Of a stretch of DNA of 64,000 nucleotides, positions 12,420 to 62,411 are shown in pieces. This DNA comes from Patescibacteria group bacterium (GTDB lineage Bacteria > Patescibacteriota > Saccharimonadia > CAILAD01 > BJGX01). The stretch lies in NCBI GenBank assembly GCA_026397045.1, contig JAPLVO010000008.1:20850-84849 (forward strand). The letters are read 5' to 3'. The notes under the pieces were generated by a model, which had not been told where the DNA came from, did no database searches, and saw nothing but the letters and a program-made list of their open reading frames with translations. Positions within the stretch are counted from its first letter, which is position 1. Every line of letters begins with the position of its first letter. A program made the position numbers and the translations under genes.

Positions 12420-12471
12420 AAAAGCAAAATATTAAAGGCAAGCGTATCACAGGCCTCTTTAGTCAAAAAAT

Positions 12472-29030: not shown

Positions 29031-29171
29031 TATTTTCTCCTTTAACTGATGATTAATTTAATATTTCCATTGCGACATCATAAGTGCCATTATTGTCTTA
29101 AATTACGATTAATAAAACTAATTACTTGTGTATGGGTTGTGTTTATATTGTACTACAGTAAGGACTTAAGC

Positions 29172-29654: not shown

Positions 29655-29663
29655 TACAAAATT

Positions 29664-35340: not shown

Positions 35341-35811
35341 CTACAGCAGCTTCTTGATATCGTCTTCCATTTTGATTGGTTCTAGATTGCTAGCAAATCG
35401 GGCTACGACATTACCTTCTCTATCAATCAAAAACTTTGTAAAGTTCCATTTTATGGCACTTAGTAAGCCGCCTTTTTGTTTTTTTAGGTATTTATACAGA
35501 GGGTCGGCATTTTTGCCGTTGACATCAATCTTTGCGAAAGTCTCAAAAGTTGTTTTATAGCGCATGGCGCAAATATTGGCTATTTCTTCGTCTGATTCTG
35601 GAGCCTGATTGGCAAATTGATTGCAGGGAAAATCTAGAATCTCTAGGCCGTCTTTGTGGTATTTTTTATATAGCTTCTCTAGGCCTTCATATTGAGGGGT
35701 AAAGCCACAGTGAGTCGCGGTGTTGACTATAAGTAGTACCTTGCCGCGGTATTTAGTCATCTCTTGCATCTTGCCATCTACTTGCTTGATCTTATAGTCA
35801 TATATACTCAA
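35341..35811 (-). CDS. glutathione peroxidase family (Cys-type)
   Basis: NTATHCGFT and FPCNQFANQ motifs. Confidence 0.85.
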   Translation of the reverse strand: MSIYDYKIKQVDGKMQEMTKYRGKVLLIVNTATHCGFTPQYEGLEKLYKKYHKDGLEILDFPCNQFANQAPESDEEIANICAMRYKTTFETFAKIDVNGKNADPLYKYLKKQKGGLLSAIKWNFTKFLIDREGNVVARFASNLEPIKMEDDIKKLL

Positions 35812-35916
35812 AATATTTAGTTCCTTGTTTACTTGTTATAGTTCTATTTTACTACACTTGGCTGTGTTTTAGATGCCTAAATACAAATGGCTTTGCTATA
35901 ATAGCAGTCATATATC

Positions 35917-36696
35917 ATGATAATTTTACTTCACTCATCTAAGACAATGAAGGCCACCAAGCTAGTAGGGCTAGAGCTATCTAAGCCGGCGCTGGCGGCT
36001 CAAGCTCAAGAGCTAGGGGTCTATTTGGCGAGCTTAAAGCTCGGAGAGATTCAGGCCGTCATGGGGGTTTCTGGCAATCTGGCTCAAGAAATCATGACCA
36101 CAGCTAGTAGCTGGCCAGCTGCTCAAGACAAGGGCTCAGCCCTGCATAGCTTTCGGGGGGATGTTTTTAGTGGCTTGCAGGTGGCAAGCTTTGATAAAAA
36201 AGATCTAGCATATGCCAACCAACACCTCAAAATAATTTCTGGCCTGTATGGCCTTTTGCGGCCGCTTGATGCCGTGTCGCCTTATCGGCTAGAGATGGGC
36301 TACAAGCTGATTCGCGAGCCCTTCACCAGCTTGTATAAGTTCTGGAGTGATACGCTAGCCAAGCTACTACCAGCAGGCCAGCCAATTGTTAATTTGACTT
36401 CTCTAGAGTATGGGCGGGCCATTGTGCCTTATCTAGACAAGAGCTTAGTCATAAGCCCGCGATTTTATACATACAACGCCAAGGCTCGTCAGTACACCAG
36501 CGTAGCCGTGCATTCTAAAATAGCCCGCGGGGCCTTTGCGCACTGGCTTATAACTAAACGCATCAATAAGGTTTCAGAGCTAACTAATTTTGATGAGATC
36601 GGCTATAGGTATGAGGCCTCGCTAAGCACCCCACTGGCGCCAGCCTTTGTGTGTCGTGATTTTATGGGCAAAGGGCTGAGTGTTAGGCTGGGTTAA
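35917..36696 (+). CDS. yaaA: peroxide stress protein YaaA (UPF0246)
   Basis: N-terminal MIILLHSSKTM. Length and pattern match the YaaA family. Confidence 0.75.
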   Translation: MIILLHSSKTMKATKLVGLELSKPALAAQAQELGVYLASLKLGEIQAVMGVSGNLAQEIMTTASSWPAAQDKGSALHSFRGDVFSGLQVASFDKKDLAYANQHLKIISGLYGLLRPLDAVSPYRLEMGYKLIREPFTSLYKFWSDTLAKLLPAGQPIVNLTSLEYGRAIVPYLDKSLVISPRFYTYNAKARQYTSVAVHSKIARGAFAHWLITKRINKVSELTNFDEIGYRYEASLSTPLAPAFVCRDFMGKGLSVRLG

Positions 36697-41445: not shown

Positions 41446-42939
41446 CTATTGTATCTGATATAGCCTAGCTTCGCTATATCCAGCCGAAAAAGTACTAACC
41501 AGCTTCCAGCTAGATGGGACCTGATCGTAATAATCATGCTGCCCTGTCTTGCCTATAACCCATACTCTTCCCGACTGGATGTCATTATAAGAGTCTAAGT
41601 AGATGCCCTTATCATATATCAAGCCAGATTCACCATAGCCGTTCGGCCTACCCTGCTTTGTGTATAGAAATATATCTAAGCCAGTTCTGTTGTAATAGCT
41701 ACTATCAAAATAGACATACAATTCTCCGGCGATAAGCTTGTCATCAGGCTTGAAGCTACTCTCAAGGCCACTCATTACGGTGCTCATTTGATGATTAGAC
41801 TGTGAATTAACATTTCTAATTCCAACCAGCTGAGAACTCACCACAATAAATAGTAGTAGTGCTGCTAGGATTTTATTTTTGGCGTTAATCTCAGATATCG
41901 CCAGAGCCAATAGCATGCATAATCCAATGGCCGCAAACACAAAATACCGCTCATGGTAGATTGGCCTAAAGAAAGATATTGAAAGTGCAAATAGTATGGG
42001 GAAAAAGCTAAAGAGTAATATAAGCCTAGAGAAGTGGGCTTTTGTTTTGTCATTTATGGTATGAGCTACTATTACAACAAGCAAAATAACAGGAACTACC
42101 CAGTACAATACTGGCCATAAAGCACGGCCATCGGTAAATGTAGTAAACTGCCATATGGTATCGTTAAGAGTCATGGCTGACGCCCTAGATAACCAGCCAA
42201 GGCCCTGCCCCCTAGTTAGTTGGCTCAGCATATTTGGCACCCATGGCATAAAAAGTATTACTGCCGCAAGATTAGCTAGCCACCATCGCCAATTAGTTAA
42301 TATGGAAATCTTTTTGCTACCTGTTTGCATGAATATAGCCACTACATAAATCCAGAAGCTAATCACTACGAGTGCGGTAAAATAATGCGTATAAAGGCCA
42401 GCCGTGATGCCAGCTACATATATGATATAACCCCTCCAATCTTTTTGATTTTGGGTTATATATATAACACCCAGCATCGCTACAAGCAGAAATACTCCTA
42501 GCACGCCATACATCCTAGCTTCCTGGCTATAGCGAATTAGAAATGGGTTGAGGGCTAAAATAAAGCCTGCCAGCGCAGCTACATTGTGCTTTTTACCTAC
42601 CTTCAACACAATAAAGTAGCCTAACCCTACAACAACCACGCCAAATACAGCACTAAGTGACCGTAAAGCCAGAGCTGAACTGCCAAATAACAAACCCCAA
42701 CCATGCAAGAGCTCGTAATACAGTGGCGGGTGTACATCCCTGGCCGAGCCGAGCCAAACACCGAGCCAATCTTTACTAGAGAGCATAATACTGAATCCTT
42801 CATCGTGCCATATGCTTGATTTAGTAATGCCGAAGGCTCTAGTAACTACAGCTAAAATGATAATTAAGACTAGAACCAATAGCCAATGCCTATTTAGCGT
42901 CTTGGAAAATTTATTAAAACTATTTTTTATACTTACCAC
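41446..42939 (-). CDS. GT-C fold membrane glycosyltransferase (ArnT/PMT_2-like)
   Basis: About 12 TM helices. A DE-containing first periplasmic loop (SIWHDEGFSIM). Confidence 0.5.
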   Translation of the reverse strand: MVSIKNSFNKFSKTLNRHWLLVLVLIIILAVVTRAFGITKSSIWHDEGFSIMLSSKDWLGVWLGSARDVHPPLYYELLHGWGLLFGSSALALRSLSAVFGVVVVGLGYFIVLKVGKKHNVAALAGFILALNPFLIRYSQEARMYGVLGVFLLVAMLGVIYITQNQKDWRGYIIYVAGITAGLYTHYFTALVVISFWIYVVAIFMQTGSKKISILTNWRWWLANLAAVILFMPWVPNMLSQLTRGQGLGWLSRASAMTLNDTIWQFTTFTDGRALWPVLYWVVPVILLVVIVAHTINDKTKAHFSRLILLFSFFPILFALSISFFRPIYHERYFVFAAIGLCMLLALAISEINAKNKILAALLLFIVVSSQLVGIRNVNSQSNHQMSTVMSGLESSFKPDDKLIAGELYVYFDSSYYNRTGLDIFLYTKQGRPNGYGESGLIYDKGIYLDSYNDIQSGRVWVIGKTGQHDYYDQVPSSWKLVSTFSAGYSEARLYQIQ

Positions 42940-43660
42940 GTATCAACTGCCAGCGTATCTTAGCTAAGTCACCGAAGGTTTGTATTGAGGCCTTTATGGG
43001 TGATGTACCGCTAATTTTGCTTCCTTGCTTAATGTCATGCCAATCAGGCACATCGATAATACCAATCGTGTAGCCTTTTTTTCTAGCTATCGCTAGCACC
43101 TCCATATCAAAGCCCCAGCTATCGATCGTCTGTAAGGGGAATATTGATTGTGCCGATTCTTTGGTGAACCCCTTGAAGCCACACTGGGTATCGGCTATAC
43201 CTGGTAGTAGAACCATCTGAACTAACATATTGCCAGCTCCTGAAATTAACTTACGGATACCTTTATGGCTCTTTTGAAGGTCCCTAACGCATATAGCAAG
43301 TTGGCTGCCGGATTGCATTAGGCTAACAGCTTCCTTGATGTATTTGAGGGGTGTCGCTAAATCTGCATCCATAAAAATAATATACTGCCCCTTGGCCTCT
43401 AGCATACCCTTTTTGACTTGCAGGCCTTTAATAAACTTACCTTTAGGCTTCGGGCCAACATCGATGACTTTGATTTTATTAAAAACTTTAGAATGAGCAT
43501 TTACTTCCTTGATGGTGTCATCTGGGCTTCTTGCATCAACCACCAAGACCTCGATATTGAGCTTTTCTTTGCTAGCGTACTTGTGTAGCTGATCTAGTGT
43601 TGGTCCTATCCTGCCCTGCTCATTATAGGTTGGTATTACAATACTTATTAGGTCTTTCAT
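42920..43660 (-). CDS. GT2 polyprenyl-phosphate glycosyltransferase (DPM1/GtrB-like)
   Basis: ISIVIPTYNE, DAD (IIFMDADLATP), QCGFK motifs. Confidence 0.8.
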   Translation of the reverse strand: MKDLISIVIPTYNEQGRIGPTLDQLHKYASKEKLNIEVLVVDARSPDDTIKEVNAHSKVFNKIKVIDVGPKPKGKFIKGLQVKKGMLEAKGQYIIFMDADLATPLKYIKEAVSLMQSGSQLAICVRDLQKSHKGIRKLISGAGNMLVQMVLLPGIADTQCGFKGFTKESAQSIFPLQTIDSWGFDMEVLAIARKKGYTIGIIDVPDWHDIKQGSKISGTSPIKASIQTFGDLAKIRWQLIRGKYKK

Positions 43661-45222
43661 TGATTTATCTCGCAGGCACTAAATAGTAGCTTGCCATTAA
43701 AGTCTGAATAGAAATCCTTGACTGTGGCATTAGGGAATTTTGCCTTAACAATAGCTACCTGTTTATCGTGGTCGGCTCCAGCTGGCACTATTATAAGGAT
43801 ATTTGTAGTATTAGCTATTGGTAGGTCTCTTAGCTGGGCAGTATCCAGTAGACTATACTGAGACTTTTTATGGGTTAGATACTCGATTGTGTTGGCCTCA
43901 TAACCGCCCATAATAACATAATTACTTCGTGCGGGATTATTTGTAGAGATCAAATATTTGGCGATTGCCACTGAGCCCTCATTGTAGGCTTCATAGGTCT
44001 TGGCATCCTGAGCCCACGATACGAAGTATTGCCGATATGCCTGAATCAGGGATAGGGCCATGAGCACACAAACCAAGAATAAGCCTGTGATTCGGGCCAG
44101 CCTATTGATAGGAAAGGTCTGATACCACATATAAAGCAAGTAATTTACTCCCATGCCGGCCATAATTAGAACTGGCACGGCTGTGCCTATGGATCTTAGA
44201 GCGTGAGGCAAACCTTCTGCCGTCAAAAGAGATGGCAATAACATTGATCCAAAAACAACCAGAAGCAATGCATACTTAGGTTTGGCAAAGTTAAATAGGC
44301 ACATGACTAGGCCCAAAATAAACATTATGCCCACGAAAATATTTAGTAGCGGCTGGCCAGAAAAATTATGCCGATTATTACTATCCCCTATGTAATTGTA
44401 TTGCAAAATAGTTTTTGCTGTTCCAGAAAGCAGAGTTTGAATTGGCTGACCATTATTTAAGTTTTTGTTCAAAAAGCTGGTACCACCTGCCCTAGCTGTA
44501 GACCCTCCAGGGTCCTTGATGGTGGTATACAAAAGTGGGCTCATAACTGCCCCAAAAACAGCCATACTAAGAATTAGCTTCTTCCAATTACTCATTAGCC
44601 AGCTTCTTCTAAAGATTAGCATATATATAAAACCTGCGAAGATTGCTGTTAATATCATGGAGAACGCTGTGTATGTATAAAATCCTAAGCCTAGAGATAC
44701 TGCAGCAAGAATATAGTAAATCTTTTTATTAGTCTTATAGGCCTTAGCGCCAAATAGTAATATTAAGGCTATGAATAATGGCACTAGGCTAGCCCTAAAG
44801 CCATCGCGTTGAATTGTCACCACCCACGGATTGATTGCAAAAAAGAAAGCCGTGATCAGCGCTGTTCGGCGATTAAACCACTCTTTAGTGGCAAAGAATA
44901 CCACTATTACGCTAAGAACTCCGAAGAGTGCAGGTGCAACTCTCAGAGCTGTTATTGTATTTCCCATCGCTAGGACAAAAACAGCCTGGAAATAAAAAAA
45001 CAATGCCTCGCGGGGGCCATTAGTATTATAAATAATCCTTAGGTCGCGGTTTTCTAGGATCTTGAATATATCTAGTCCGTTTGCTGCTTCATCTGGATGT
45101 AAACCTGGCGGGAGTGTATTTAGCTGGTAGAATCTAAAAAATATAGCTAATGCGACTATTGCCAGAAGCAAAAACCAGACCATATTTTTCCTTATAAAAA
45201 TGAGTGTTTTGTTATTTTTCAT
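43657..45222 (-). CDS. GT-C fold membrane glycosyltransferase (ArnT/PMT_2-like)
   Basis: LHPDEAANGLD first-loop motif. 13-14 TM helices. 521 aa. Confidence 0.6.
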   Translation of the reverse strand: MKNNKTLIFIRKNMVWFLLLAIVALAIFFRFYQLNTLPPGLHPDEAANGLDIFKILENRDLRIIYNTNGPREALFFYFQAVFVLAMGNTITALRVAPALFGVLSVIVVFFATKEWFNRRTALITAFFFAINPWVVTIQRDGFRASLVPLFIALILLFGAKAYKTNKKIYYILAAVSLGLGFYTYTAFSMILTAIFAGFIYMLIFRRSWLMSNWKKLILSMAVFGAVMSPLLYTTIKDPGGSTARAGGTSFLNKNLNNGQPIQTLLSGTAKTILQYNYIGDSNNRHNFSGQPLLNIFVGIMFILGLVMCLFNFAKPKYALLLVVFGSMLLPSLLTAEGLPHALRSIGTAVPVLIMAGMGVNYLLYMWYQTFPINRLARITGLFLVCVLMALSLIQAYRQYFVSWAQDAKTYEAYNEGSVAIAKYLISTNNPARSNYVIMGGYEANTIEYLTHKKSQYSLLDTAQLRDLPIANTTNILIIVPAGADHDKQVAIVKAKFPNATVKDFYSDFNGKLLFSACEINQ

Positions 45223-45778
45223 TATTAAATATAAAGTACTTATACATTAGATAATTATAAAACAGAACAACTGCTACAGCTGCTAGCAGGGCGGTGTTTC
45301 TAATATCAAACTCTCTAGTAAAGGGTAGCCTTAGGTAGCTAGTGATGCTGTATGCTAGCTGAGCTGGCCAAATCCAGACATCAGTAAAAACAAAAAATAT
45401 TATTGGGCGAATTAAATATAGGCCAGCCGCAGTAATAATAAAAAACAAAACTAACTTAGCAGGAGATAGCTTTTTTGCCTTAAAGGTGAAGTTCTTATTG
45501 AATATGAAGCTATTAATCATTGCTGCAGTTCCAGATATTAACCCAGCCAAGACCACCCCAGTAATATTGTATTGTTTGCCAGCGAGAGTAAAGCTAAATA
45601 TTAAAAGGGTACTGGGTAGTATTGTGGCCGCAAGAATATTTAGCAGGGTAAAATCTACCAGGGTGTTAAGTATGCCAACTAGACCAAATCTACCAACTTG
45701 GGCAGCCTCGGAAAGTTTATTAGAAGGTTTGGATTTAGTGTTACTCATCATATTGCTTATGGATTTATTATAACTCAA
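45212..45778 (-). CDS. GtrA-family flippase-like membrane protein
   Basis: RFGLVGILNTLVDFTLLNIL with 4 TM helices. Confidence 0.6.
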   Translation of the reverse strand: MSYNKSISNMMSNTKSKPSNKLSEAAQVGRFGLVGILNTLVDFTLLNILAATILPSTLLIFSFTLAGKQYNITGVVLAGLISGTAAMINSFIFNKNFTFKAKKLSPAKLVLFFIITAAGLYLIRPIIFFVFTDVWIWPAQLAYSITSYLRLPFTREFDIRNTALLAAVAVVLFYNYLMYKYFIFNNEK

Positions 45779-50298: not shown

Positions 50299-50483
50299 CC
50301 TCCGATGCTTTAAATTTAATGTGCATGATTACCAAACAAAAAGCCCCCGGTAATAAACCTAGGACCTTAAAGTTTGAAAATCTATTGTTAGATTTGTAAC
50401 CTCATGTAGCGAATTAAGTCATTTAGACTGCTACAGTCTTTGGTAATCGATATTATTATAGCAGCTTAGCGGTGAATATTCAA
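50299..50483 (-). promoter_or_regulatory. rplJ 5' leader (possible L10 autoregulatory leader)
   Basis: 185-nt untranslated spacer upstream of rplJ. Inferred from the conserved L10-leader position only. Confidence 0.25.
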
Positions 50484-54191: not shown

Positions 54192-55460
54192 TTATGGCCT
54201 TGGCAGCTTGATATCAATAGAGCTAGGCAGGCTGTTAGATAGCTGTGTTAGATATGAGGCTAATTCCGCCGATACCGCTGAACTCGCTATGAAATAAGTA
54301 ATCACTATAACTGCTGCAATCATCACGACAATTAGCAGACTGAGATATCCAGGGTTACGATTGTTGTGCATTACTAAGCCAGCTCTCATGCCATGAACAC
54401 GAACAACTCTTGCCCAGTACCCCACTTGCCAGGCAGTCCATACCGACCATAGGATATACAAAAAAGTCGAGAATGAGGATAATACAAGTATCTGAAGGCT
54501 CACGGCGGTTGTAGTATCTATTAGATAAACATTTATAGCTACCAGGCCAAGGCTAAGGCCGAAAAACAGCATCAAATGCAGCATCCATACGAACCCATAT
54601 TTAATACTGGCTAGAGGGTGGCTGAGGGTATACTTGAAGGCGGGGCTTAATTTAGCCGTTCCAGTTTCGGTGCCTATTGCAACGCTAGCCATCAACCAAA
54701 ACCTTAAGGTCGAATACGCTGCAATCATCATAATCAGCACCAATAATGCGCATAGGCACAGAAAAGCTTGCTGATATATAGAGCCATAGCCGAGCACATA
54801 TATAGCCAGTATGGTTAAAGCCGCAAACCCTAAAATAAGCATAAATACCATTACTTTTACAATCTTCTGTAGAAAGCTACCTAATATCTGGCTAGCTGAT
54901 TGTTTTAATGAATTAGAAAGCTTGGGCTCACGATTATCTAGCTGCTGATACCTGAACCTTAACAGTGCAGGAGTTATTAGGCTATCGGCAATAATACTAA
55001 CTAGAGCAATTATAAGTATGGTGCCTCCTAATACTATGAGCATGGATGTATTTTGGGCCGATACACCAGCCTTTAGCTCTATAAGCAGCTCATCGAGTTT
55101 TAAGACTGATAAATAGCGCAACTGAAATATCAAGATTGGCAAAATTACGAAAAATAAAACTCGAGCCCCTAATAAGTTTCTGGCTAATGACAGCTGGAAT
55201 ATGTCTGCAATCAAAACGGACTTCCAGGCCGAACTAACCATAGTGATAACTCCTGATTGAGCTGGCCTGGGAGCTGGGGCTTGAGTTGGAGTTGGCCTGG
55301 GAGCTGGAGCTCGAGTCGGAGTTGGCCTGGGAGGTGGAGCTGGAGCTCGAGTCGGAGTTGGCCTGGGAGCTGGGGCTGGCCTGGCAGCTGAAACCTTCGG
55401 ACTTTTTACAGTCGACATGCGTGAGACCCTTTTAATATCAATGTTTTTTGGTGTAGCCAT
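54192..55460 (-). CDS. polytopic membrane protein with N-terminal Pro/Thr/Ala-rich tandem repeats
   Basis: (RPTPTRAPAP)n N-terminus then about 8 TM helices. No family recognised. Confidence 0.4.
   Translation of the reverse strand: MATPKNIDIKRVSRMSTVKSPKVSAARPAPAPRPTPTRAPAPPPRPTPTRAPAPRPTPTQAPAPRPAQSGVITMVSSAWKSVLIADIFQLSLARNLLGARVLFFVILPILIFQLRYLSVLKLDELLIELKAGVSAQNTSMLIVLGGTILIIALVSIIADSLITPALLRFRYQQLDNREPKLSNSLKQSASQILGSFLQKIVKVMVFMLILGFAALTILAIYVLGYGSIYQQAFLCLCALLVLIMMIAAYSTLRFWLMASVAIGTETGTAKLSPAFKYTLSHPLASIKYGFVWMLHLMLFFGLSLGLVAINVYLIDTTTAVSLQILVLSSFSTFLYILWSVWTAWQVGYWARVVRVHGMRAGLVMHNNRNPGYLSLLIVVMIAAVIVITYFIASSAVSAELASYLTQLSNSLPSSIDIKLPRP
55258..55390 (-). repeat. ~33-bp tandem DNA repeat (~4 copies) encoding the P/T/A-rich repeats
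   Basis: TGGCCTGGGAGCTGGRGCTYGAGTYGGAGT units. One copy carries a 6-nt insertion. Confidence 0.6.
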
Positions 55461-55494: not shown

Positions 55495-56334
55495 CTATAG
55501 CGCAAAACTTCTTTTGATCTTTATGAACAATAAAATTCTAATTTTTACGAATAAAGGAAGGCTGGCTCTAGATTTTGAAAGCTCACTGGCAGGCCTACTA
55601 TTTATCAATTTAGTTAACTCGCTGAAGTACGAATAAGCAAGCTCCACACCATATCGGCTAGACTTAGGTAGGGACTTTATAGCTCCACTGGCTATTTTTA
55701 GATCCTTATTTATATCTTCTGTGATGTCAGTGATATCTTGCTGGGTTAGGTTCTTTGAAGATTTGCCAGGAAAATATAATCGGCCAAGATTACCAGAATC
55801 ATCGGAGATATCTCTTAGGAAATTTATCTTTTGGAATGCAGAGCCCAGTGCTCTGGCAGATGGCTTTAACTCCCTAAACTTTTTCTTATCACCGGCCACA
55901 AATACCATTAAGCACATTAGGCCCACAGCTTCAGCTGAGCCATATATATAATCACTGTACTCTTCTAGAGAATACCGCTTCTTTTTAATATCCATGCGCA
56001 TGCTATCCATGAATGAGTCGATCAAATCCATGGGTATACCGTACTCACGAACAACCAAGCAAAAACTATGGACAATTGGGTTAATGCTAAAACCCGTCTT
56101 TAAGGCTCTTTTGGTGTCAGCTGTTAGCTCATCGAGATATTCAGCCATTTCCTTAGGCCGCCATGTATCCACGACCTCGTCTGCTATTCTAACAAACCCG
56201 TAAATAGACACTATTGAGTCTGCCACTTTGGGGCTAAGGAGCTTAGTTGCAGATGAGAATGAGCTTGAATAAGAGAAGGTGATGTCTCGACTTAAGCGAA
56301 TGCTTATTTGGTTATATAGGCCAATATTAATCAC
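55495..56334 (-). CDS. crtB: phytoene/squalene synthase family (CrtB/CrtM-like)
   Basis: Asp-rich YGFVRIADEVVD and signature-2 LGSAFQKINFLRDISDDSGNLGRLYFP. Confidence 0.7.
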   Translation of the reverse strand: MINIGLYNQISIRLSRDITFSYSSSFSSATKLLSPKVADSIVSIYGFVRIADEVVDTWRPKEMAEYLDELTADTKRALKTGFSINPIVHSFCLVVREYGIPMDLIDSFMDSMRMDIKKKRYSLEEYSDYIYGSAEAVGLMCLMVFVAGDKKKFRELKPSARALGSAFQKINFLRDISDDSGNLGRLYFPGKSSKNLTQQDITDITEDINKDLKIASGAIKSLPKSSRYGVELAYSYFSELTKLINSRPASELSKSRASLPLFVKIRILLFIKIKRSFAL

Positions 56335-56339
56335 TGCTA

Positions 56340-57410
56340 CTACTTTTTCCTAGCCACACAGTATGAGGCGAGATTTCTTAAAAGATCTTCGAGCTCAGTA
56401 TCTAGGTTCATCCTATCCAATATTAATAAGGACTTTTTAAGATGATCATCTGCCGCAACAGTGACCTTAGCCCGTGCACCACATTCCTCGAGAATAACTC
56501 GGACTATCTTGGTGTCATGAATATTTATATCCGTCTTGCCCAGCCTAGTCTCAATGGCCTTCCATTGCAGTGGAGATGATAGCTTTTTAGCATAATACAT
56601 CAGTAGCGTTTGTTTACCTTCGCGAATATCTGAGCCGACTGGCTTACCTGTTTGTCGACTTGAGCCAAACATGCCAAGGAGGTCGTCTGCGAGCTGGAAA
56701 GCTTTGCCTAATTCAGAGCCAAACTCAGCAAAGAGCTTAAAAAGCTTACTATTTCCCCCGGCGGCGACAATGCCTAGTTGCATGGGATATGTAATAGTAT
56801 ATTGAGCAGTTTTATAAAAATTCACCTTTTCTATTTTACTTAGATTCAAATCTCCTCTAAGACCCGCCATGACATCTAATTGCTGCCCTGCTCCGGTATC
56901 GAAAAGTGTTTTTTGGAAATGCTTCATCATTTCGAACACCAGCTTGGGGTCGAGGTCGAGGCTGGTTAGCACTTCAAATGTAAAGAACTCATTTAGCTCC
57001 CCTGCTAAAATAGCGATGGACTCGGCAGTTTTCCTAGCAGGTTTATCATCTAGCAGCTTCTTGAACCTTTTTTCATATACTCCCGTAATATTTGCGCCGC
57101 CGTAGCGTGTGGTATCGCCGTCCATAATATCATCATGGATAAGTACGAAGTTATGAAAAATTTCTAACGATACAGATGCATCCAGGGCCTTAGCTATTTC
57201 TTTGCCGCCGGCAGCCCTATAGCCTAGTACCATTAAGGTTGGCCTGAGTCTCTTGCCGCCTCTGAGAATGAACTTCTTCATATCCAGCAGCAGCTTGGCA
57301 TAGACTGGATCAATCTTACTAGCCTCGGCTATTTTAAGATCATAGAAATCAGATAATCTACCATCTACCTCTGATTTAACAAACTTGTTTAATGCAATAA
57401 ATTTTTCCAT
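56340..57410 (-). CDS. polyprenyl diphosphate synthase (GGPP/FPP synthase, CrtE/IdsA-like)
   Basis: FARM LIHDDIMDGD and SARM FQLADDLLG. Confidence 0.8.
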   Translation of the reverse strand: MEKFIALNKFVKSEVDGRLSDFYDLKIAEASKIDPVYAKLLLDMKKFILRGGKRLRPTLMVLGYRAAGGKEIAKALDASVSLEIFHNFVLIHDDIMDGDTTRYGGANITGVYEKRFKKLLDDKPARKTAESIAILAGELNEFFTFEVLTSLDLDPKLVFEMMKHFQKTLFDTGAGQQLDVMAGLRGDLNLSKIEKVNFYKTAQYTITYPMQLGIVAAGGNSKLFKLFAEFGSELGKAFQLADDLLGMFGSSRQTGKPVGSDIREGKQTLLMYYAKKLSSPLQWKAIETRLGKTDINIHDTKIVRVILEECGARAKVTVAADDHLKKSLLILDRMNLDTELEDLLRNLASYCVARKK

Positions 57411-57411
57411 A

Positions 57412-58911
57412 CTACGCCTTAGTATCCTTCAAAATCCTTTCCATGACTAGCTTAGCACTAAGGGTCACCATCGGTATGCCGCCTCCAGGATAGGTGCTCG
57501 CACCGACAAAATAAAGGTTCTTTATATCCTTACTTTTATTGTGTGGCCTAAAATAGCCAGACTGCAAAAAGTGATGGCTCAGACCAAAAGCAGATCCGAT
57601 GTGCAAATTATATTTGTCTCTGAAATCTTCTGGCGTAAAAATAGATTCCACTTTTATTTTTTTCTCAATATCCAAATCAAACTCCGTCTTTAGCCTTGAT
57701 AGTACCTGCTTTCTAAGGCGTTTTATGCCAGACTGCCATTGCACCTTTGAATCAAGATTCGGAACCGGCACCAGTACATAGAATACACTCTTTCCTTTTG
57801 GTGCCAAGCTTGGGTCAGTCTTGGTAGGAATATAAGTATAAAACGAAGGATCCTTAGGAAGTTTTTTCTGATGGAATATTTCATCAAGATTATTTTTAAA
57901 GTCTTTACAGAGATATACATTATGATGAAGCATGCCCTCGCAGCTATCATCTACACCCCAATAGAATAGTAAGGCTGAGCTTGCCTGCTTATATGATTCG
58001 AGTTTTGTATTAGGAGTCGAAGGTCGATCTTTTTCATCAATCAATTTCATCTGAGAATATACTAAATCAGCATTGGCTACAATTGTATCCGCATAAAGTT
58101 TTTTGTTCTTATTTGTCCTAATACCGACTGCGGTTTTGTTTTCTATAATTATTTCTTCTACCGGTGTCGAGGTAATTATTTTACCCCCTAAATCTTTGAC
58201 CAGCTTTTCAATAGCCAAAGATAGTGAGTACATGCCACCCTTTGGATACCAAATACCCAATCCTGTTTCCATATAGCTCACCACGCTATAAACCGCTGGT
58301 GCCTCGTGCGGACTAACACCCAAATACATACTTTGAAAACTAAATAATTGCCTAAGGCGCTCATCTTTGAAATAACGCGAGACAAATTTATAGAGCTTAG
58401 ATAAGCCTCTCTTTTTGAATAATTGGGCACCACTTACGGGGCTGATGAAGTCGGTAATATTGCTAAAGTTTTTATCTATAAAGTTAGCCCTAGCGATTCT
58501 ATATATCTCCGATACATCGCCGAAAAATTTATAAAACTGCTCTGGGCCTTTAGGGTCAAACTTGGACAGCTCGCTTGCAAATTTTGGTAAATTACTACTT
58601 ACAGTAATTCTACTTTTATCGGCGAATGCAACTTGATAGTTTGGCTCTAGCTGTAACAACTCGATATAGTCATCGAAATTTTTACCACAGTAGCTGAAGG
58701 TCTCATAGAGGGTATCGGTCATCATGAGAAGGGTCGGCCCCATGTCAAAAGTGTAGCCACTTTTCTCAATACGGTGTGCTCGGCCGCCAATTTTATCTTC
58801 CTTTTCGACAATAGTGACTTCGTAGCCATTTTTAAGCAAACGAGCAGCCGCACACATCCCGCCTATGCCGCCGCCAACTATAATTACACTTTTGAGTTTA
58901 TTATTTTTCAT
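57412..58911 (-). CDS. crtI: phytoene desaturase family (CrtI/CrtN)
   Basis: N-terminal FAD fold VIIVGGGIGGMCAAARL...EKEDKIGGRA. About 500 aa amine-oxidase fold. Confidence 0.8.
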   Translation of the reverse strand: MKNNKLKSVIIVGGGIGGMCAAARLLKNGYEVTIVEKEDKIGGRAHRIEKSGYTFDMGPTLLMMTDTLYETFSYCGKNFDDYIELLQLEPNYQVAFADKSRITVSSNLPKFASELSKFDPKGPEQFYKFFGDVSEIYRIARANFIDKNFSNITDFISPVSGAQLFKKRGLSKLYKFVSRYFKDERLRQLFSFQSMYLGVSPHEAPAVYSVVSYMETGLGIWYPKGGMYSLSLAIEKLVKDLGGKIITSTPVEEIIIENKTAVGIRTNKNKKLYADTIVANADLVYSQMKLIDEKDRPSTPNTKLESYKQASSALLFYWGVDDSCEGMLHHNVYLCKDFKNNLDEIFHQKKLPKDPSFYTYIPTKTDPSLAPKGKSVFYVLVPVPNLDSKVQWQSGIKRLRKQVLSRLKTEFDLDIEKKIKVESIFTPEDFRDKYNLHIGSAFGLSHHFLQSGYFRPHNKSKDIKNLYFVGASTYPGGGIPMVTLSAKLVMERILKDTKA

Positions 58912-58941
58912 TATTTAGTGAATATATAATATAATAATACT

Positions 58942-59256
58942 GTGAATAATGCATATTTAGCCATACTTTTATTTAGCATAGCGGGGATGGGTATAATTGA
59001 CGCCCGCTATAAGTTAGTATTTTTTTTAGATTATAAATCGGCCGCCAAGAGCATCGCCATAGTGATGACGCTGCTTTTAGTTATTGATGTGATAGGAATA
59101 AATTTAGATATATTCAGCACTAATCCAGATTATGTGACTGGCATTTTTATTGGCAGCGAAAACCTGCCGCTGGAGGAATTCTTTTTTTTATTTCTTCTTT
59201 GCTATTTCACGCTATCTATCAATCGGATAATATCGTCGAGACTTAAAAATGTTTAA
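58942..59256 (+). CDS. lycopene-cyclase-domain small membrane subunit (CrtYe/LbtA-like)
   Basis: About 100 aa, 3 TM helices, conserved PLEEFFF (PxEE) motif. Confidence 0.5.
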   Translation: MNNAYLAILLFSIAGMGIIDARYKLVFFLDYKSAAKSIAIVMTLLLVIDVIGINLDIFSTNPDYVTGIFIGSENLPLEEFFFLFLLCYFTLSINRIISSRLKNV

Positions 59257-59557
59257 ATATAGTGGCTTGATTATATTATGTTTAGCGCTGTCGACTGGTA
59301 TTATATTTATTTACAAATTAAAAGTAACGCTTAGCAAAGCACTACTATACACCGGGCTTGTAAGTTTTGTTGCTATGCTGTTTTTTAACACCATACTCAC
59401 GAGCCTGCCTATAGTGGTGTATAATACGGCTTCAACTCTAAATATTAGAGTCCTAACATTCCCTATTGAGGACATAGGATATTTATTGGCGGTCTTAATG
59501 ATTCTGCCAGCTTTGTTTGAAAAGTTTATTAACGAAAGTAGTTCTAATAAAAAATAA
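59249..59557 (+). CDS. lycopene-cyclase-domain small membrane subunit (CrtYf/LbtB-like)
   Basis: About 100 aa, 3 TM helices, FPIEDIGY (PxED) motif. Overlaps the previous gene by 8 nt. Confidence 0.5.
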   Translation: MFKYSGLIILCLALSTGIIFIYKLKVTLSKALLYTGLVSFVAMLFFNTILTSLPIVVYNTASTLNIRVLTFPIEDIGYLLAVLMILPALFEKFINESSSNKK

Positions 59558-61550
59558 TCATCAGCTTTCTATTCGAGAAGTTTTAGCCAGTTCTAGGCCA
59601 TTTAGCTGGGTTAACACTGTCGGTCCTTTCTTTGTAGGCTATACGATTGCCAATGGCTCGATCAATCTCCCCTGCGTGGTAGGTGCGGTTTACTTTTGCT
59701 TCTTCTACAATTTTTTATTATATGGAGTGAATGATATATTTGATTATGAATCAGATATAAAAAATCCTCGAAAAAATTCTATAGAGGGTGGCCTGGTCGA
59801 CAAGAGCAAACATAATCTGATGTTCGCTCTTATAATAGCTACGAATATACCTATTTTAATATACCTAATGGCCACTGGCAGCATACTTAGTGGCTCAATA
59901 CTGGCCCTAATCATATTTTTTGCATTTAGCTATTCCGCTAAGCCATTCAGATTTAAAGAGGTGCCAATTCTAGATTCGATAAATTCTAGCTTGCACTTTG
60001 TGATGCCTTTAGTTTTTGGCTTGGTTTATGCAGGTGCCACCAGCCTTCCTTGGCCAGCGATAATATCTTTCTTTTTGTGGGGAGCTGCCTCGCAGGCCCT
60101 AGGAGCTATCCAGGACATTAAGCCCGATAGGGCAGGCGGTATAGAGTCGATCGCAACCAAGCTGGGGTCAAAGTTTACAAATAGGTATAGCATTATTCTT
60201 TATACCGTGAGCTGTATCATACCCGTCATATTCTATTTCCCATGGGGAATAGCTGTAGGAATTATACTTTCCCTTTACCCATTAAATGTTCTGTTCTTTA
60301 GCAGATTCAAATCAGATGCTAAGAGTGGTGAATACAATAGGGCCTGGAAAAACTTTCTATGGTTAAACCTGCTGTGTGGTTTCTGGCTAAGTCAACTGTT
60401 ACTGTTCGTCTTTGACCCATTAGGGCTGGGGCTAAGCAGGATAGCTTTGCTGGGAGTCTTTATTATTATTATTGGCTTGGCTCAACTATCCCTTACTCTG
60501 TACAATTACAAGAAATTCACTCGTCCCAAGACTAAACGCCTCAATGATCTGCCGCATATAGATATACTACTCCACTCCACCGGCAACAAGGATAATATCG
60601 CCTCCACGCTCCTTGCTCTGATAGGCCAAAACTACCCTCACTTTGATATTTACTACGCCAACCTAGATAATGACCCGCGCTCCAGGAAGATCGCTGAAGG
60701 CTACCAGGATAAAAGGCTACAAATCGTTGACGCTGGCAGAACTCCAGCCGGCTGGAGTCAGGCGGCCTGGGCTAGCAATGTATTATTTAAAAAATCTAAA
60801 TCGGATATAAATGTATTAATAAGCCCAGATACTATTCTGCTACCCAACACCCTTTCGGTAATTGCCAGCATGTTCGACTCTAGCGATCTAGATCTAGTAT
60901 CATTATTGCCGGCTGATCAAAATGAATCATTATGGCAGCAACTTTTAATGAGCCAGGAACACTATTTGCTATTAGGACTCTACCCTTCTGCATACATCAC
61001 CAAAAACCACCCAAAACTAGCCACGGCTTATAGTAATTTAATTGCTTTTAAGAAGTCTCCGCTTAAAAAAGTTGGTGGGTTTGAATTAACCAAAAACAGC
61101 CCCCTTGAGGACCTCGATATAGCCAATAAAGCCAACCAAATCGGGCTAAACACTAAATTCTATTGTGCTAGCGACTTGGCAGTTAGCCAGAATAGATCTG
61201 GGCTAGTGAGTTTAGCTGCCTACAACCAACAAAAACTGTATCCTAGCCTACACTTCAATATGCCCCTTACTGTTGCTCTTATTTCGGGTGGTATTTTCAT
61301 TATTTCATTCCCAATATTCTTATTAAGCGCCTTGATGCTAGCAGGGATATATGATGGCACAATACTTTTGGCGATAGGTTGTGCTCTACTGCTATTCAAT
61401 AGGCTAGTAGTAATGGTCAAATCCAAGCAGAGCATTTCTGGTGCTCTGCTTTACCCATTAGGCTGTCTTGCGATTTTGCTGCAACTTTTCACATCGATGC
61501 TCTATTATGAGCTAAGAAAGCACAGCTGGAAAAGCCGCTACGAACTATAG
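59517..61550 (+). CDS. fusion: UbiA-family prenyltransferase (lycopene-elongase-like) + C-terminal GT2 glycosyltransferase
   Basis: N-terminal SRPFSW and NDIFDYESD (NDxxDxxxD) UbiA motifs with 7-8 TM helices. C-terminal GT2 region (DxD-like LDND, then 2-3 terminal TM helices). Confidence 0.55.
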   Translation: MKSLLTKVVLIKNNHQLSIREVLASSRPFSWVNTVGPFFVGYTIANGSINLPCVVGAVYFCFFYNFLLYGVNDIFDYESDIKNPRKNSIEGGLVDKSKHNLMFALIIATNIPILIYLMATGSILSGSILALIIFFAFSYSAKPFRFKEVPILDSINSSLHFVMPLVFGLVYAGATSLPWPAIISFFLWGAASQALGAIQDIKPDRAGGIESIATKLGSKFTNRYSIILYTVSCIIPVIFYFPWGIAVGIILSLYPLNVLFFSRFKSDAKSGEYNRAWKNFLWLNLLCGFWLSQLLLFVFDPLGLGLSRIALLGVFIIIIGLAQLSLTLYNYKKFTRPKTKRLNDLPHIDILLHSTGNKDNIASTLLALIGQNYPHFDIYYANLDNDPRSRKIAEGYQDKRLQIVDAGRTPAGWSQAAWASNVLFKKSKSDINVLISPDTILLPNTLSVIASMFDSSDLDLVSLLPADQNESLWQQLLMSQEHYLLLGLYPSAYITKNHPKLATAYSNLIAFKKSPLKKVGGFELTKNSPLEDLDIANKANQIGLNTKFYCASDLAVSQNRSGLVSLAAYNQQKLYPSLHFNMPLTVALISGGIFIISFPIFLLSALMLAGIYDGTILLAIGCALLLFNRLVVMVKSKQSISGALLYPLGCLAILLQLFTSMLYYELRKHSWKSRYEL

Positions 61551-61571: not shown

Positions 61572-62411
61572 CTAAAGCGCTCTATCGCTTGCCCTAAACA
61601 CTACTTTGGCTATAATTATAGCCAATACGGATGCTAGCCCGACTGCTATAAATACTGGCAAAGTCTGAGATAGCAAAAATACTATTACCCTACCCAGAGC
61701 TAAAGGGTCCATTAGTCGGGAAGGGTCCGAAGAGATTAATAGATTATTCGCACTTAATAAATTAGCCGAAAAAGCCATTACCAGCCCGATGATAGAGCCA
61801 AATGCAAGTGAATAAGCAGGGCTAGTTATTTTTCTACTGCCCTTGCGAATATTAACTATTACCAGCGATAGTATCGAAATAGAAATAGTCACCCACAAAA
61901 AAGGTATAGCTTGGCTCGCCGTAGTATAGATTAGTTTGGCATACTGCAATCTATCTAATAGTGTCTTGTCCTCGCTATCTGGTGCGATCAGCGAAATGCT
62001 GTCTGGAATAATTTTGGTAATCTCGAATTTAGCTCTTGGGTCGTCTATGCCAGAAAGTGCCTTTGACCTCAGCTGCACTAGATCTAATTGCAAAGCTATA
62101 GGGCCATTAGGCGAATTAAGCCACTCCAATATAGATATCTGGCTTGGCTGCAAAGTAGACTTTACAACTTCTGGGGTTACTGCTTGGCCGATTCCGTTCT
62201 TTGCAAGACCCACAATTGCCTCATTGCCGCTTAATTGGCTAATGAGCAAGGAGCTCAAGCTCTTGGCGGCAGTGTTATAAAATCCTGAGCCGGCCAATAC
62301 TTGTGTTAGCCTTTGGTTGGAGGAAAATGTCCCCACTAGAGACATGGCAAAGACTAAAAGTAAAAAGCTCAGGCAGACCACTGCCTGTAATATTCTATTG
62401 ATTAGTGACAA
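61572..62411 (-). CDS. hypothetical membrane protein
   Basis: N-terminal and C-terminal TM helices. No family recognised. Confidence 0.4.
   Translation of the reverse strand: MSLINRILQAVVCLSFLLLVFAMSLVGTFSSNQRLTQVLAGSGFYNTAAKSLSSLLISQLSGNEAIVGLAKNGIGQAVTPEVVKSTLQPSQISILEWLNSPNGPIALQLDLVQLRSKALSGIDDPRAKFEITKIIPDSISLIAPDSEDKTLLDRLQYAKLIYTTASQAIPFLWVTISISILSLVIVNIRKGSRKITSPAYSLAFGSIIGLVMAFSANLLSANNLLISSDPSRLMDPLALGRVIVFLLSQTLPVFIAVGLASVLAIIIAKVVFRASDRAL

Follow-up and report, generated by a model that had tools for sequence, protein, structure and literature searches.

Actinobacterial clusters for cyclic C50 carotenoids include crtE-crtB-crtI-crtYe-crtYf-crtEb of C. glutamicum (decaprenoxanthin), lctABC of Agromyces, lbtA/lbtBC of Dietzia (C.p.450) and crtE2-crtYg-crtYh of M. 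luteus (sarcinaxanthin). The architecture of such clusters, including the lbtBC fusion and the crtX gene, has been published, and characterised clusters share 30-42% identity (PMC6669644). The reference used for comparison below, an Agromyces-type cluster (L033), is laid out as MarR / idi-crtE-crtB-crtI-cycA-cycB-elongase. In Saccharibacteria this type of pathway has been noted briefly before: lyeJ, crtD and cruF were reported from Lake Baikal genomes, and bacterioruberin was proposed as the product of the same genes (PMC9948471). The locus described here is thus of a known kind, and is not a new system.

Six adjacent open reading frames (ORFs), at positions 55495-61550 of a 64-kb stretch of DNA from a freshwater Saccharibacterium (the ‘window’), encode such a set of proteins (Table 1). 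The minus strand carries a phytoene synthase (CrtB), an isoprenyl diphosphate synthase (IDS) resembling geranylgeranyl diphosphate (GGPP) synthase, and a phytoene desaturase (CrtI), while the plus strand carries two lycopene-cyclase-domain proteins of about 100 residues (s1 and s2) and a 677-residue fusion of a UbiA domain with a glycosyltransferase family 2 (GT2)-like domain. All six products match family HMMs, and this cannot be the result of chance, because the E-values range from 1e-10 to 1e-153 for six functionally linked genes within 6 kb. The best explanation, and in our judgement a probable one, is that they form a chromosomal, vertically inherited pair of carotenoid operons in a freshwater Saccharibacterium, organised on the plan of the cyclic-C50 clusters of Actinobacteria (crtE-B-I with crtYe/Yf/Eb, lctABC or lbtA/BC).

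Table 1. Features of the carotenoid locus and more distant genes in the window (bit scores with model cutoffs where available).
Feature	Positions	Strand	Basis
crtB, phytoene synthase-like SQS_PSY enzyme, 279 aa	55495-56334	-	PF00494 130.6 bits (cutoff 26)
crtE, short-chain trans-isoprenyl diphosphate synthase, GGPP-synthase-like, 356 aa	56340-57410	-	PF00348 168 bits
crtI, phytoene desaturase family flavoenzyme, 499 aa	57412-58911	-	TIGR02734 crtI_fam 512 bits (cutoff 238)
Divergent intergenic region, 30 bp, AT-rich, between the crtI and s1 start codons	58912-58941	.	sequence tatttagtgaatatataatataataatact
s1, cyclase subunit A (CrtYe/LbtA/LctA-like), 104 aa	58942-59256	+	TIGR03462 57.3 bits (cutoff 39.4)
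s2, cyclase subunit B (CrtYf/LbtB/LctB-like), 102 aa, PIED motif	59249-59557	+	PF18916 46.3 bits (cutoff 27)
UbiA-GT2 fusion, 677 aa	59517-61550	+	NF009608 303.7 bits (cutoff 217); PF01040 95 bits; PF00535 24.0 bits (cutoff 23.3, marginal)
UbiA-family lycopene-elongase domain, aa 1-310 of fusion	59517-60446	+	NF009608, L033 identity, motifs, fold
GT2-like (GT-A fold) domain and C-terminal TM helices, aa ~346-677 of fusion	60552-61550	+	weak sequence matches, AlphaFold2 model
AhpC/TSA	28500-29030		
AhpC/TSA	29664-30137		
Glutathione peroxidase	35341-35811		
YaaA	35917-36696		

The cluster adjoins secE-nusG-rplK-rplA, a position that is common to about 20 Saccharibacteria metagenome-assembled genomes (MAGs). 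Its named homologues and syntenic loci belong to Candidatus Saccharibacteria MAGs of lake origin, in agreement with the original prediction, which had guessed at a reduced, CPR-like lineage from sequence features; its further statement that such lineages generally lack carotenoid pathways needs to be qualified, since the MAG that supplied locus L005 is among those already reported with lyeJ, crtD and cruF. The identity of CrtI to that of the sister genus is 78-80% (L1, 66-69%; NusG, 88%) and falls between 60 and 80% among Saccharibacteria loci, and all six genes in the window are intact and conserved. A small, host-dependent lake bacterium carries a complete, well-conserved C50-type carotenoid gene set of the actinobacterial kind.

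The resemblance to actinobacterial C50 clusters extends to the individual genes: IDS, CrtB, CrtI, both cyclase subunits and the UbiA elongase each have their counterpart, the order cycA-cycB-elongase with overlapping ORFs is retained, and comparison with the Agromyces-type cluster gives gene-by-gene identities of about 29-42% and the same best NCBIfam models. Thus, the correspondence of gene content and order with clusters of the decaprenoxanthin and C.p.450 type, as first proposed from the sequence, is borne out by the published architectures (PMC6669644) and by the reference cluster. There are also differences. The crtI-crtE-crtB block in the window is inverted and runs divergently from the cyclase/elongase block; idi and a MarR (CrtR) regulator are missing from the cluster; there is no separate crtX, and a GT2-like domain with non-canonical motifs is instead found at the elongase C-terminus; and the host is a reduced epibiont, probably unable to make IPP or DMAPP.

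Both small proteins had been called lycopene-cyclase-domain proteins, and each passes the threshold of one family model. The first has three predicted TM helices, an LPLEE motif (the PxEE signature being kept in all loci) and only 22.1 bits on PF18916 (cutoff 27), and the second reaches 39.0 bits on TIGR03462, slightly short of the 39.4 cutoff; their ORFs overlap by 8 nt. The s1 protein is 42% identical to CycA of the reference cluster, HMMs built from s1 and s2 give that cluster's CycA and CycB 81.5 and 53 bits, respectively, and the NCBIfam profiles of the cyclases are the same in both clusters. In other phyla, both cyclase domains are found fused to the elongase, a ‘Rosetta-stone’ form of evidence: the N-terminal cyclase domain of cyclase-elongase fusions is matched by the s2 HMM in ten of ten cases and by the s1 HMM in none, and in proteins with two cyclase domains followed by UbiA, s1 matches the first and s2 the second, in the same order as here. 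TIGR03462 does not distinguish C40 from C50 heterodimeric cyclase-domain proteins, and the presumed C50 specificity of the pair rests on synteny and fusion.

The adjoining UbiA domain is 41.5% identical to the elongase of the reference cluster, has a fold (in an AlphaFold2 model) that matches AfUbiA 4tq3/4tq4, and carries two aspartate motifs, N72-DIFDYES-D80 (59730-59756) and Q199-DIKP-D204 (60111-60128), which are invariant wherever the full crt set is present. The top-scoring model of this elongase, NF009608, is also that of the Agromyces elongase (447 bits) and of LbtBC-like fusions (413-425 bits). The same module (s1, s2, UbiA-GT2, crtI and crtB) occurs in uncharacterised loci of Dormibacteraeota and related Terrabacteria (L029, L030), whose fusions are 30-33% identical to that of the window. 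Unlike the window, those loci are co-directional, have no crtE adjoining, and keep canonical GT2 motifs (DDGS.D.T, GWTGKCWA, DADT, ED, WRR); in Dormibacteraeota, s2, UbiA and GT2 constitute one 742-residue protein beside s1, crtI and crtB.

In haloarchaea and Arthrobacter, bacterioruberin is made with Lye/LyeJ, CrtD or a bifunctional CrtI/D, and CruF. This pathway shares with the locus a UbiA-family lycopene elongase, a CrtI-family desaturase and a C50 product, which for the locus is a predicted one. An acyclic route of this type, with UbiA as elongase/hydratase, CrtI doubling as a 3,4-desaturase, CruF encoded elsewhere and s1/s2 serving a side branch, is nonetheless unlikely. In its favour, the Baikal HMM matches to lyeJ, crtD and cruF include those of Baikal-deep-G192, the source of L005, whose fusion is 69% identical to that of the window; furthermore, haloarchaeal CrtI/D enzymes are bifunctional (PMC11946383), and on that model CrtI of the window scores 421 bits and a soil Saccharimonadales variant (L026) 626, near the 640 cutoff. 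However, this score is uninformative, because CrtI of the Agromyces-type cluster scores higher (478 bits). Moreover, bacterioruberin clusters are ordered Lye-CrtD-CruF (PMC9122864), whereas here two cyclase subunits are translationally coupled to the elongase and there is one CrtI-family gene, with no second desaturase in either the cluster or the window; none of the ORFs scanned in the 64-kb window matches PF04240 (CruF); and the elongase, above the cutoff on NF009608, reaches only 148 bits on NF009516 (cutoff 205). The per-protein matches to the Agromyces-type cluster, the cycA-cycB-elongase order and the cyclase-elongase fusions of other phyla make a cyclic C50 route more likely than the bacterioruberin pathway that was put forward in 2023 for Baikal Saccharibacteria.

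The GT2 assignment of the C-terminal half of the fusion, originally made from the sequence alone, has gained independent backing from strong GT2 Pfam matches in homologues of the fusion and from a confident AlphaFold2 model (pLDDT 88, pTM 0.86) whose GT-A half finds its structural matches among membrane GT2 enzymes, namely PcManGT (6yv7), BcsA and hyaluronan synthase. The domain's own sequence gives weak full-length matches to HpnB, HpnI and CruG (HpnB 68 and CruG 32 bits, both far below cutoff), with PF00535 at threshold. Like the membrane GT2 enzymes that act on isoprenoid lipids (of HpnB, HpnI, CruG and CrtQ type), it combines a GT-A fold with TM helices at the C-terminus; unlike them, it scores far below the equivalog cutoffs and forms one polypeptide with a prenyltransferase. 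It contains an invariant D438 as well as E531-D532; the D1 position, however, is occupied by N382, the DxD motif is S-P-D438, and GWxGK has lost its GK in the window's clade. Despite these departures the domain is strongly conserved (75-77% identity to the sister clade). Its most likely ancestor is a carotenoid glycosyltransferase, and sugar transfer by it may be retained. A conserved GT2-like domain with neither canonical D1 nor DxD is one of two new details of this locus; the other concerns four genomes that contain the fusion only.

In those four related Saccharibacteria loci, crtBEI and s1/s2 are absent, and in exactly these four UbiA motif 1 is altered (GDIYDDKSD, IDSICEDKYN, NDIFDLKSD, versus an otherwise invariant NDI[FY]DY[ED]SD). 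Of the four, L006 and L007/8 (three loci) fall within the full-cluster clade that holds the window, and L018 branches outside it. This coupled loss counts in favour of the C50 reading, and against a C40 route, in which s1/s2 would act as a CrtYc/Yd-type lycopene beta-cyclase yielding beta-carotene (for example, as retinal precursor for Saccharibacterial rhodopsins) and UbiA-GT2 would modify another lipid. Heterodimeric cyclase-domain proteins do include C40 beta-cyclases; Saccharibacteria have rhodopsins and lack blh (PMC9296517); and in lineages without crt genes the GT2-like domain keeps 67% identity while UbiA drifts to 54-55%, which suggests a carotenoid-independent function of the former. 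Yet many proteins carry these two cyclase domains in covalent fusion with the elongase, the nearest named stand-alone elongase lies within a canonical C50 cluster, and the 64-kb window holds no blh or rhodopsin gene, so that we consider the C40 route decidedly unlikely.

The lone fusions, which are full-length, together with soil variants (L025, L026) that have crtI-s1-s2-UbiA and no adjacent crtB or crtE, also speak for the idea that the elongase-GT2 mainly modifies carotenoids or polyprenoids scavenged from actinobacterial hosts, with the bacterium's own crtEBI dispensable. CPR bacteria scavenge lipids, and Saccharimonadia are reported to be without C5 synthesis (PMC9166423). On the other side, the altered UbiA catalytic motifs speak against continued elongase activity of the lone fusions, the missing crt genes could lie on other contigs of those MAGs, and the window's own six genes show no sign of decay; this degree of host dependence appears quite improbable.

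The identification of CrtB and CrtI as carotenoid enzymes, as opposed to HpnCDE, stands. The aspartate-rich motifs of CrtB, D52-EVV-D56 and LGSAFQKINFLRDISDDSGNLGRLYFP (the latter fitting squalene/phytoene synthase signature 2), can be read directly, as can those of the IDS (FARM DDIMD, preceded by Phe at -5 and Val at -4; SARM DDLLG). CrtB gives 89 bits on HpnD, 77 on HpnC and 57-68 on CrtB equivalogs, all far below cutoff, and its best PDB relatives are HpnC (4hd1) and CrtM (8is6); this pattern is a trait of the CrtB lineage rather than evidence of a squalene route, because CrtB of the canonical reference cluster scores alike (85/70/50 bits) and is 39% identical over 269 residues. A C30 or squalene-type pathway (dehydrosqualene or (pre)squalene synthase of CrtM or HpnC/D type, with an HpnB/CrtQ-like GT2, giving glycosylated C30 apocarotenoids or hopanoid-related lipids) could draw on those scores and on HpnB as the best GT2 match, but is scarcely credible given the single SQS_PSY gene, a CrtI with 46 bits on the HpnE model versus 512 on crtI_fam, the presence of a GGPP-synthase-like IDS, an elongase and cyclases, and no squalene-hopene cyclase seen in the 64-kb window.

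Under the cyclic C50 reading, the IDS would convert IPP plus DMAPP or FPP to GGPP; its best solved relative is geranylgeranyl pyrophosphate synthase 3lk5 (148 bits), its top NCBIfam matches are identical to those of the reference crtE (30% sequence identity), and its product is presumably C20. CrtB would then join two GGPP into phytoene, and CrtI (only 29% identical to its reference counterpart) would desaturate phytoene to lycopene. The UbiA domain would add a C5 unit at C-2 (and C-2') of lycopene, to give acyclic C45/C50 intermediates; the s1/s2 heterodimer would close rings at the elongated ends; and the GT2-like domain, placed at the same cytoplasmic side of the membrane, would glycosylate hydroxylated C5 arms. 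In this scheme the chain lengths (C45 or C50), the type of ring and glycosylation of the product are predictions that go beyond what sequence can tell. Freshwater Saccharimonadia reportedly have no C5 isoprenoid synthesis and perform only C10-C20 isoprenoid steps (PMC9166423), so that the host is the probable source of IPP and DMAPP; idi, MEP and MVA genes are absent from the 64-kb window.

The physiological role of the product may be membrane reinforcement and photo-oxidative protection. Four nearby peroxidase genes had been cited in support of an oxygen- or light-exposed lifestyle; these are two AhpC/TSA genes, a glutathione peroxidase gene and YaaA, and all lie 19-27 kb from the cluster, not next to it. 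Being ordinary and distant, they add little to that inference. The spacer between crtI and s1 contains TATAAT-like runs in both directions, but its length leaves no room for two conventional promoters each with a leader; we would guess at leaderless transcripts.

The six open reading frames at 55495-61550 are present exactly as the original prediction described them, and the C50-type carotenoid cluster of this Saccharibacterium is real, if in part anticipated by the literature. Three things set it apart: the elongase is fused to a GT2-like domain in a protein so far uncharacterised, the cluster keeps a fixed place in the chromosome, and crt and cyclase genes have been lost together more than once. 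CPR/Patescibacteria are generally considered to have neither lipid biosynthesis nor the greater part of isoprenoid biosynthesis, and to obtain membrane material from host cells; a membrane-spanning carotenoid of the C50 type would be among the few membrane components that lake Saccharibacteria make for themselves, and a conserved pathway would also indicate exposure to light and oxygen. The favoured prediction for the cluster's product is a cyclic C50 carotenoid.

Features of the window and of the comparison loci (L numbers), with positions in each sequence
Feature	Sequence	Position	Strand	Description
crtB	window		-	279 aa, SQS_PSY; PF00494 130.6 bits
IDS/crtE	window		-	356 aa, polyprenyl synthase; PF00348 168 bits; motifs DDIMD, DDLLG
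crtI	window		-	499 aa; TIGR02734 512 bits (cutoff 238)
intergenic region	window	58912-58941		30 bp between divergent crtI and s1 start codons; AT-rich, overlapping TATAAT-like runs
s1	window		+	104 aa; TIGR03462 57.3 bits (cutoff 39.4); GTG start
s2	window		+	102 aa; PF18916 46.3 bits (cutoff 27)
fusion	window		+	677 aa; first 300 residues match NF009608, 303.7 bits (cutoff 217)
multi-TM protein	window	54192-55460	-	422 aa, proline-rich repetitive N-terminus (PAPRPTPTRAPAP...), no Pfam match
membrane protein	window	61572-62411	-	279 aa, no Pfam match, convergent with fusion gene
L10 leader RNA	window	50328-50461	-	RF00557 55.4 bits; upstream of rplJ-rplL
peroxide-stress genes	window	28500-30137, 35341-36696		two AhpC/TSA peroxiredoxins, glutathione peroxidase (GSHPx), YaaA
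possible envelope-glycosylation cluster	window	41446-45778	-	two PMT_2 (GT-C) proteins, DPM-synthase-like GT2, GtrA-family protein
gene pair	window	11403-15144	+	sigma-70 region 4 + HARE-HTH protein, then 890-aa TrwB/VirD4-like type IV coupling ATPase
VIT1-family protein	window	23580-24098	+	172 aa, predicted iron/manganese transporter family; adjoins dcw cluster
lone fusion	L006	7914-10007		full-length fusion alone
lone fusion	L007/L008	7998-9995		full-length fusion alone
lone fusion	L018	8016-10028		full-length fusion alone
extra ORF, 173-188 aa	L009	6706-7227	as s1	between crtI and s1
extra ORF, 173-188 aa	L011	6800-7321	as s1	between crtI and s1
extra ORF, 173-188 aa	L012	605-1171	as s1	between crtI and s1
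extra ORF, 173-188 aa	L022	6693-7229	as s1	between crtI and s1
SQS_PSY at crtB position	L015	4170-4727		27-28% identity to window CrtB
SQS_PSY at crtB position	L016/L017			27-28% identity to window CrtB
SQS_PSY at crtB position	L020	3273-3983		27-28% identity to window CrtB
soil Saccharimonadales module	L025	1873-4890		CrtI-like gene, s1, s2, stand-alone UbiA (292-301 aa)
soil Saccharimonadales module	L026	4841-7779		CrtI-like gene, s1, s2, stand-alone UbiA (292-301 aa)

For the assignment of the UbiA domain, NF009608 was calibrated empirically: it is also the best model for the elongase of Agromyces (447 bits) and for fusions of the LbtBC kind (413-425 bits). The window domain is 41.5% identical to the elongase of L033, a canonical cluster of the Agromyces type, and retains both motifs (N72-DIFDYES-D80 and D200-IKP-D204); by these features it classes as a putative CrtEb/LbtC/LctC-type lycopene elongase in which NDxxDxxxD and DxxxD are both intact. 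With regard to a Lye-type elongase/hydratase, the domain falls below the cutoffs of two alternative models: NF009516, which may represent haloarchaeal Lye, gives 148 bits (cutoff 205), and NF010119 gives 144 bits (cutoff 248). No literature was found on the meaning of the three NCBIfam prenyltransferase models (PRK13105, PRK12875 and PRK13595).

When the UbiA domain was used as query in a full HMMER scan, 90 representatives scored below 1e-30, and their architectures differ: stand-alone (about 290 aa); cyclase plus UbiA (about 380-430 aa), the published architecture of Dietzia LbtBC (PMC6669644); two cyclases plus UbiA (about 515 aa, in Limnocylindrus); UbiA plus GT2; and cyclase plus UbiA plus GT2. 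One stand-alone relative, at 42% identity, is named Agromyces sp.; in a genome that carries it (L033) the genes run MarR / idi-crtE-crtB-crtI-cycA (111 aa)-cycB (101 aa)-elongase (294 aa), the textbook order, which has been published for producers of decaprenoxanthin (PMC6669644). Between that locus and the window, IDS and CrtE are 30% identical and the two CrtI proteins 29%. Elsewhere, the Dormibacteraeota encode s2, UbiA and GT2 as one 742-aa protein beside s1, crtI and crtB, and a second contig from outside the Saccharibacteria reads s1-s2-UbiA-GT2-crtI-crtB. The gene-by-gene matches to L033, together with the cyclase-elongase fusions, uphold the reading of a C50-type carotenoid cluster.

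Which C50 route these genes serve has been answered differently before. Haro-Moreno et al. reported HMM matches to lyeJ, crtD and cruF in Baikal Saccharibacteria, including the metagenome-assembled genome of L005, and called the genes a bacterioruberin pathway (PMC9948471). Bacterioruberin clusters comprise Lye, CrtD and CruF (PMC9122864), whereas in the window there is a single CrtI-family gene, the elongase is coupled to a pair of cyclase subunits, and CruF is missing: the latter (PF04240) was found neither among the scanned ORFs of at least 110 aa at 1231-62411 nor in the precomputed Pfam annotation of comparison locus L001. The cluster likewise contains no dedicated CrtD and no bifunctional CrtI/D equivalog, its CrtI reaching 421 bits on the CrtID model NF058655 (cutoff 640), a name that fits the CrtI/CrtD enzymes of Haloarcula japonica, which are bifunctional (PMC11946383). 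That partial score was rejected as support for bacterioruberin, since the decaprenoxanthin-type CrtI of L033 scores higher (478 bits). Because of the single CrtI-family gene, the lack of PF04240 in the window, the coupling of cyclases to the elongase and the lower CrtID score, a cyclic C50-type route is favoured over bacterioruberin, even though a CruF gene may lie elsewhere in the genome. The published claim is thereby refined: the genes look to be of the decaprenoxanthin or C.p.450 type.

The two small proteins, s1 and s2, both exceed the cutoffs of their cyclase-domain models, at which they might have failed; s1 is 42% identical to cycA of L033, and an HMM built from Saccharibacterial s2 sequences scores 53 bits on cycB. 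The reading frame of s1 runs into that of s2 for 8 nt, and that of s2 into the fusion for 41 nt; the pair forms two separate lycopene-cyclase-domain subunits, in the range of about 100-130 aa, in A-B order directly 5' of the elongase. As cyclases, they would act on C50 (flavuxanthin-type) rather than C40 substrates. When the Saccharibacterial s1 and s2 HMMs were run on fused cyclase-UbiA proteins, the s2 model matched the N-terminal cyclase domain in all ten (27-71 bits) and the s1 model in none, and in the three proteins with two cyclase domains s1 corresponded to domain 1 and s2 to domain 2, followed by UbiA. At the sequence level, this confirms the A/B assignment. The covalent fusion of the same domains elsewhere is an argument for a common pathway of the elongase and the two cyclase subunits; it also speaks against s1 and s2 acting as a stand-alone C40 beta-cyclase. 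Given the short space between the divergent start codons, the crtI and s1 transcripts may be leaderless; scanning the cluster for promoters and terminators gave 29 sites, no better than the 22.5 expected in shuffled sequence. In one Saccharibacteria subclade (L009, L011, L012 and L022) an additional ORF, absent from the window, is conserved between crtI and s1.

The remaining genes would supply the substrate of the elongase. The Asp-rich motifs that the original prediction read are present; in CrtB, D52-EVV-D56 and a perfect signature-2 stretch are legible, as expected of a putative phytoene synthase of the SQS_PSY family with both Asp-rich motifs. With the L033 CrtB the protein shares 39% identity and the same NCBIfam profile, and its C40 specificity is only inferred, because it lies below every CrtB equivalog cutoff in NCBIfam. 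The IDS finds its best PDB match in the GGPP synthase 3lk5 and shares its top NCBIfam matches with the CrtE of L033; it too is below all equivalog cutoffs, and a GGPP-type product length is suggested only by the Phe at position -5 of the FARM. CrtI profiles as a CrtI-type phytoene desaturase, by its strong TIGR02734 match, and reaches 46 bits on the HpnE model (cutoff 283), which disposes of the concern that it might belong to a squalene pathway. A squalene route might still be read from CrtB, which scores best on HpnD (89 bits; cutoff 279) and then HpnC (77 bits; cutoff 250), but the canonical L033 CrtB shows the same sub-threshold pattern (HpnD 85 > HpnC 70 > CrtB 50), so that the profile is a lineage artefact, and the HpnCDE route requires two SQS_PSY paralogues plus HpnE where the cluster has a single SQS_PSY gene. 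At the crtB position elsewhere the protein is 44-63% identical to window CrtB; the low-identity SQS_PSY proteins of L015, L016/L017 and L020 suggest a swap to a different synthase lineage.

With each species represented by a single genome, a scan identified 25 Saccharibacteria/Patescibacteria loci, many from lakes (among them the Experimental Lakes Area, Baikal and Umea), and those homologues of the fusion that carry an organism name are Candidatus Saccharibacteria; the earlier guess of a CPR lineage was, for these reasons, correct. About 20 loci share a common order, in which rplA-rplK-nusG-secE and a multi-TM protein are followed by crtB-crtE-crtI on the minus strand and s1-s2-UbiA-GT2 on the plus strand, with fusion identities down to 38%. 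Between the window and its sister group (L002-L005), CrtI is 78-80% identical, ribosomal protein L1 66-69% and NusG 88%; the GC content of the cluster is not deviant. The cluster is an old, vertically inherited and selected trait of a Saccharibacteria clade, and not a recent insertion. A module in soil Saccharimonadales (L025 and L026) is arranged otherwise, being without a GT2 domain and without adjoining crtB or crtE; its CrtI-like protein is 34% identical to window CrtI and, with 626 bits, comes in under the cutoff (640) of the model for the bifunctional CrtI/D of haloarchaea.

Four loci with the same flanking genes (L006, L007/L008 and L018) keep the fusion alone, and permissive tblastn found in them neither crtB, crtE, crtI, s1 or s2 nor their remnants. 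In a neighbour-joining tree, L006 and L007/L008 fall inside the clade of the window and the full-cluster loci L002-L005, with L018 adjoining but outside it, a placement suggesting that crtBEI and the cyclases were lost independently on three or more occasions. The motif NDI[FY]DY[ED]SD, otherwise invariant, is altered in exactly these four loci (to GDIYDDKSD, IDSICEDKYN or NDIFDLKSD, with motif 2 also changed alongside IDSICEDKYN), and this coincidence links the function of the UbiA domain with the crt genes. In L007/L008 the UbiA domain retains 54-55% identity to the window, versus 71-73% in sister full-cluster loci, and the GT2-like domain 67% versus 75-77%, which hints that the latter may be worth keeping in its own right. 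Repeated loss of this kind, with elongase motifs altered but the GT2-like domain kept, is a natural experiment on how reduced genomes shed a pathway.

The fusion family comprises about 89 clusters at 90% identity, with 38-99% identity to the window protein, from Saccharibacteria wherever the organism is named; further fusions occur in Dormibacteraeota. It is uncharacterised, and may prove a source of long-chain carotenoids with new glycosylation. The proposed fusion of a UbiA elongase to a GT2 stood as regards the UbiA part and the fold of the second half. For GT2, that half only just reaches the threshold in sequence (PF00535, 24.0 bits; cutoff 23.3), and it is below equivalog level for characterised families: HpnB (68 bits; cutoff 379), HpnI (35; 310) and CruG (32; 600). 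A sequence search of the PDB with the fusion gave no match, after which AlphaFold2 and Foldseek were used. In the model, built from 48 homologues (pLDDT 88.4, pTM 0.86), the UbiA half resembles AfUbiA (4tq3/4tq4) and the membrane-anchored GT-A half matches PcManGT (6yv7; TM-score 0.54-0.56, normalised to target), BcsA and hyaluronan synthase; as modelled, the GT2-like domain would have a GT-A fold with membrane anchors.

Its nucleotide-sugar and metal-binding residues (D1 and DxD) are not retained in the window: N382 occupies D1 and DxD reads S436-P437-D438, D438 being the sole invariant residue of that motif, while E531-D532 is kept. Saccharibacterial GT2-like domains have lost the Lys of GWxGK and the first Asp of DxD; the window clade also has Asn at D1, reads S-P-D438 and lacks the GK of GWxGK. 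Fusions from outside the Saccharibacteria keep all GT2 motifs (DDGS.D.T, GWTGKCWA, DADT, ED and WRR). Because the canonical motifs are partly lost, glycosyl transfer is, by ancestry, plausible but not assured. A bolder and rather improbable proposal is that the domain has gained a second, carotenoid-independent function and that the pigment pathway runs wholly on host-supplied C5 units. It is prompted by the loss of the D1/DxD site in a domain nonetheless conserved more than the elongase domain, and by its persistence under selection in lineages without any carotenoid gene, where the UbiA site drifts. The second role may be the modification of scavenged host membrane lipids or polyprenoids, or that of a non-catalytic membrane scaffold; if the proposal were true, the carotenoid would be a rarity, a membrane component that a cell otherwise stealing its lipids makes for itself.

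As to precursors, the 64-kb window contains no MEP, MVA, idi, blh or rhodopsin genes, and no regulator gene. A survey of freshwater CPR does not mention carotenoids and gives Saccharimonadia only the C10-C20 isoprenoid steps (PMC9166423), which implies that IPP and DMAPP are probably host-derived, and a paper on Saccharibacteria rhodopsins reports no blh (PMC9296517). The four nearby peroxidase genes of the original prediction exist as peroxide-defence genes, but add little, because they lie 19-27 kb from the cluster and such genes (AhpC/TSA, GSHPx and YaaA types) are common in CPR.

The window is otherwise dense in housekeeping genes (tRNA synthetases, a dcw cluster, and rplJL with its L10 leader, which with one tRNA makes up all Rfam matches), and secE-nusG-rplK-rplA lie directly upstream of the cluster. 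The 422-aa multi-TM protein is conserved between secE and the carotenoid genes and, since it is kept in the lone-fusion loci as well, is probably part of the backbone and not of the pathway; the 279-aa membrane protein follows the fusion in the lone-fusion loci, too, and is conserved there throughout the window clade. A sub-threshold, weak UbiA match of the VIT1-family protein is probably spurious. Between rplJ and rplA, the window also carries a serine hydroxymethyltransferase gene.
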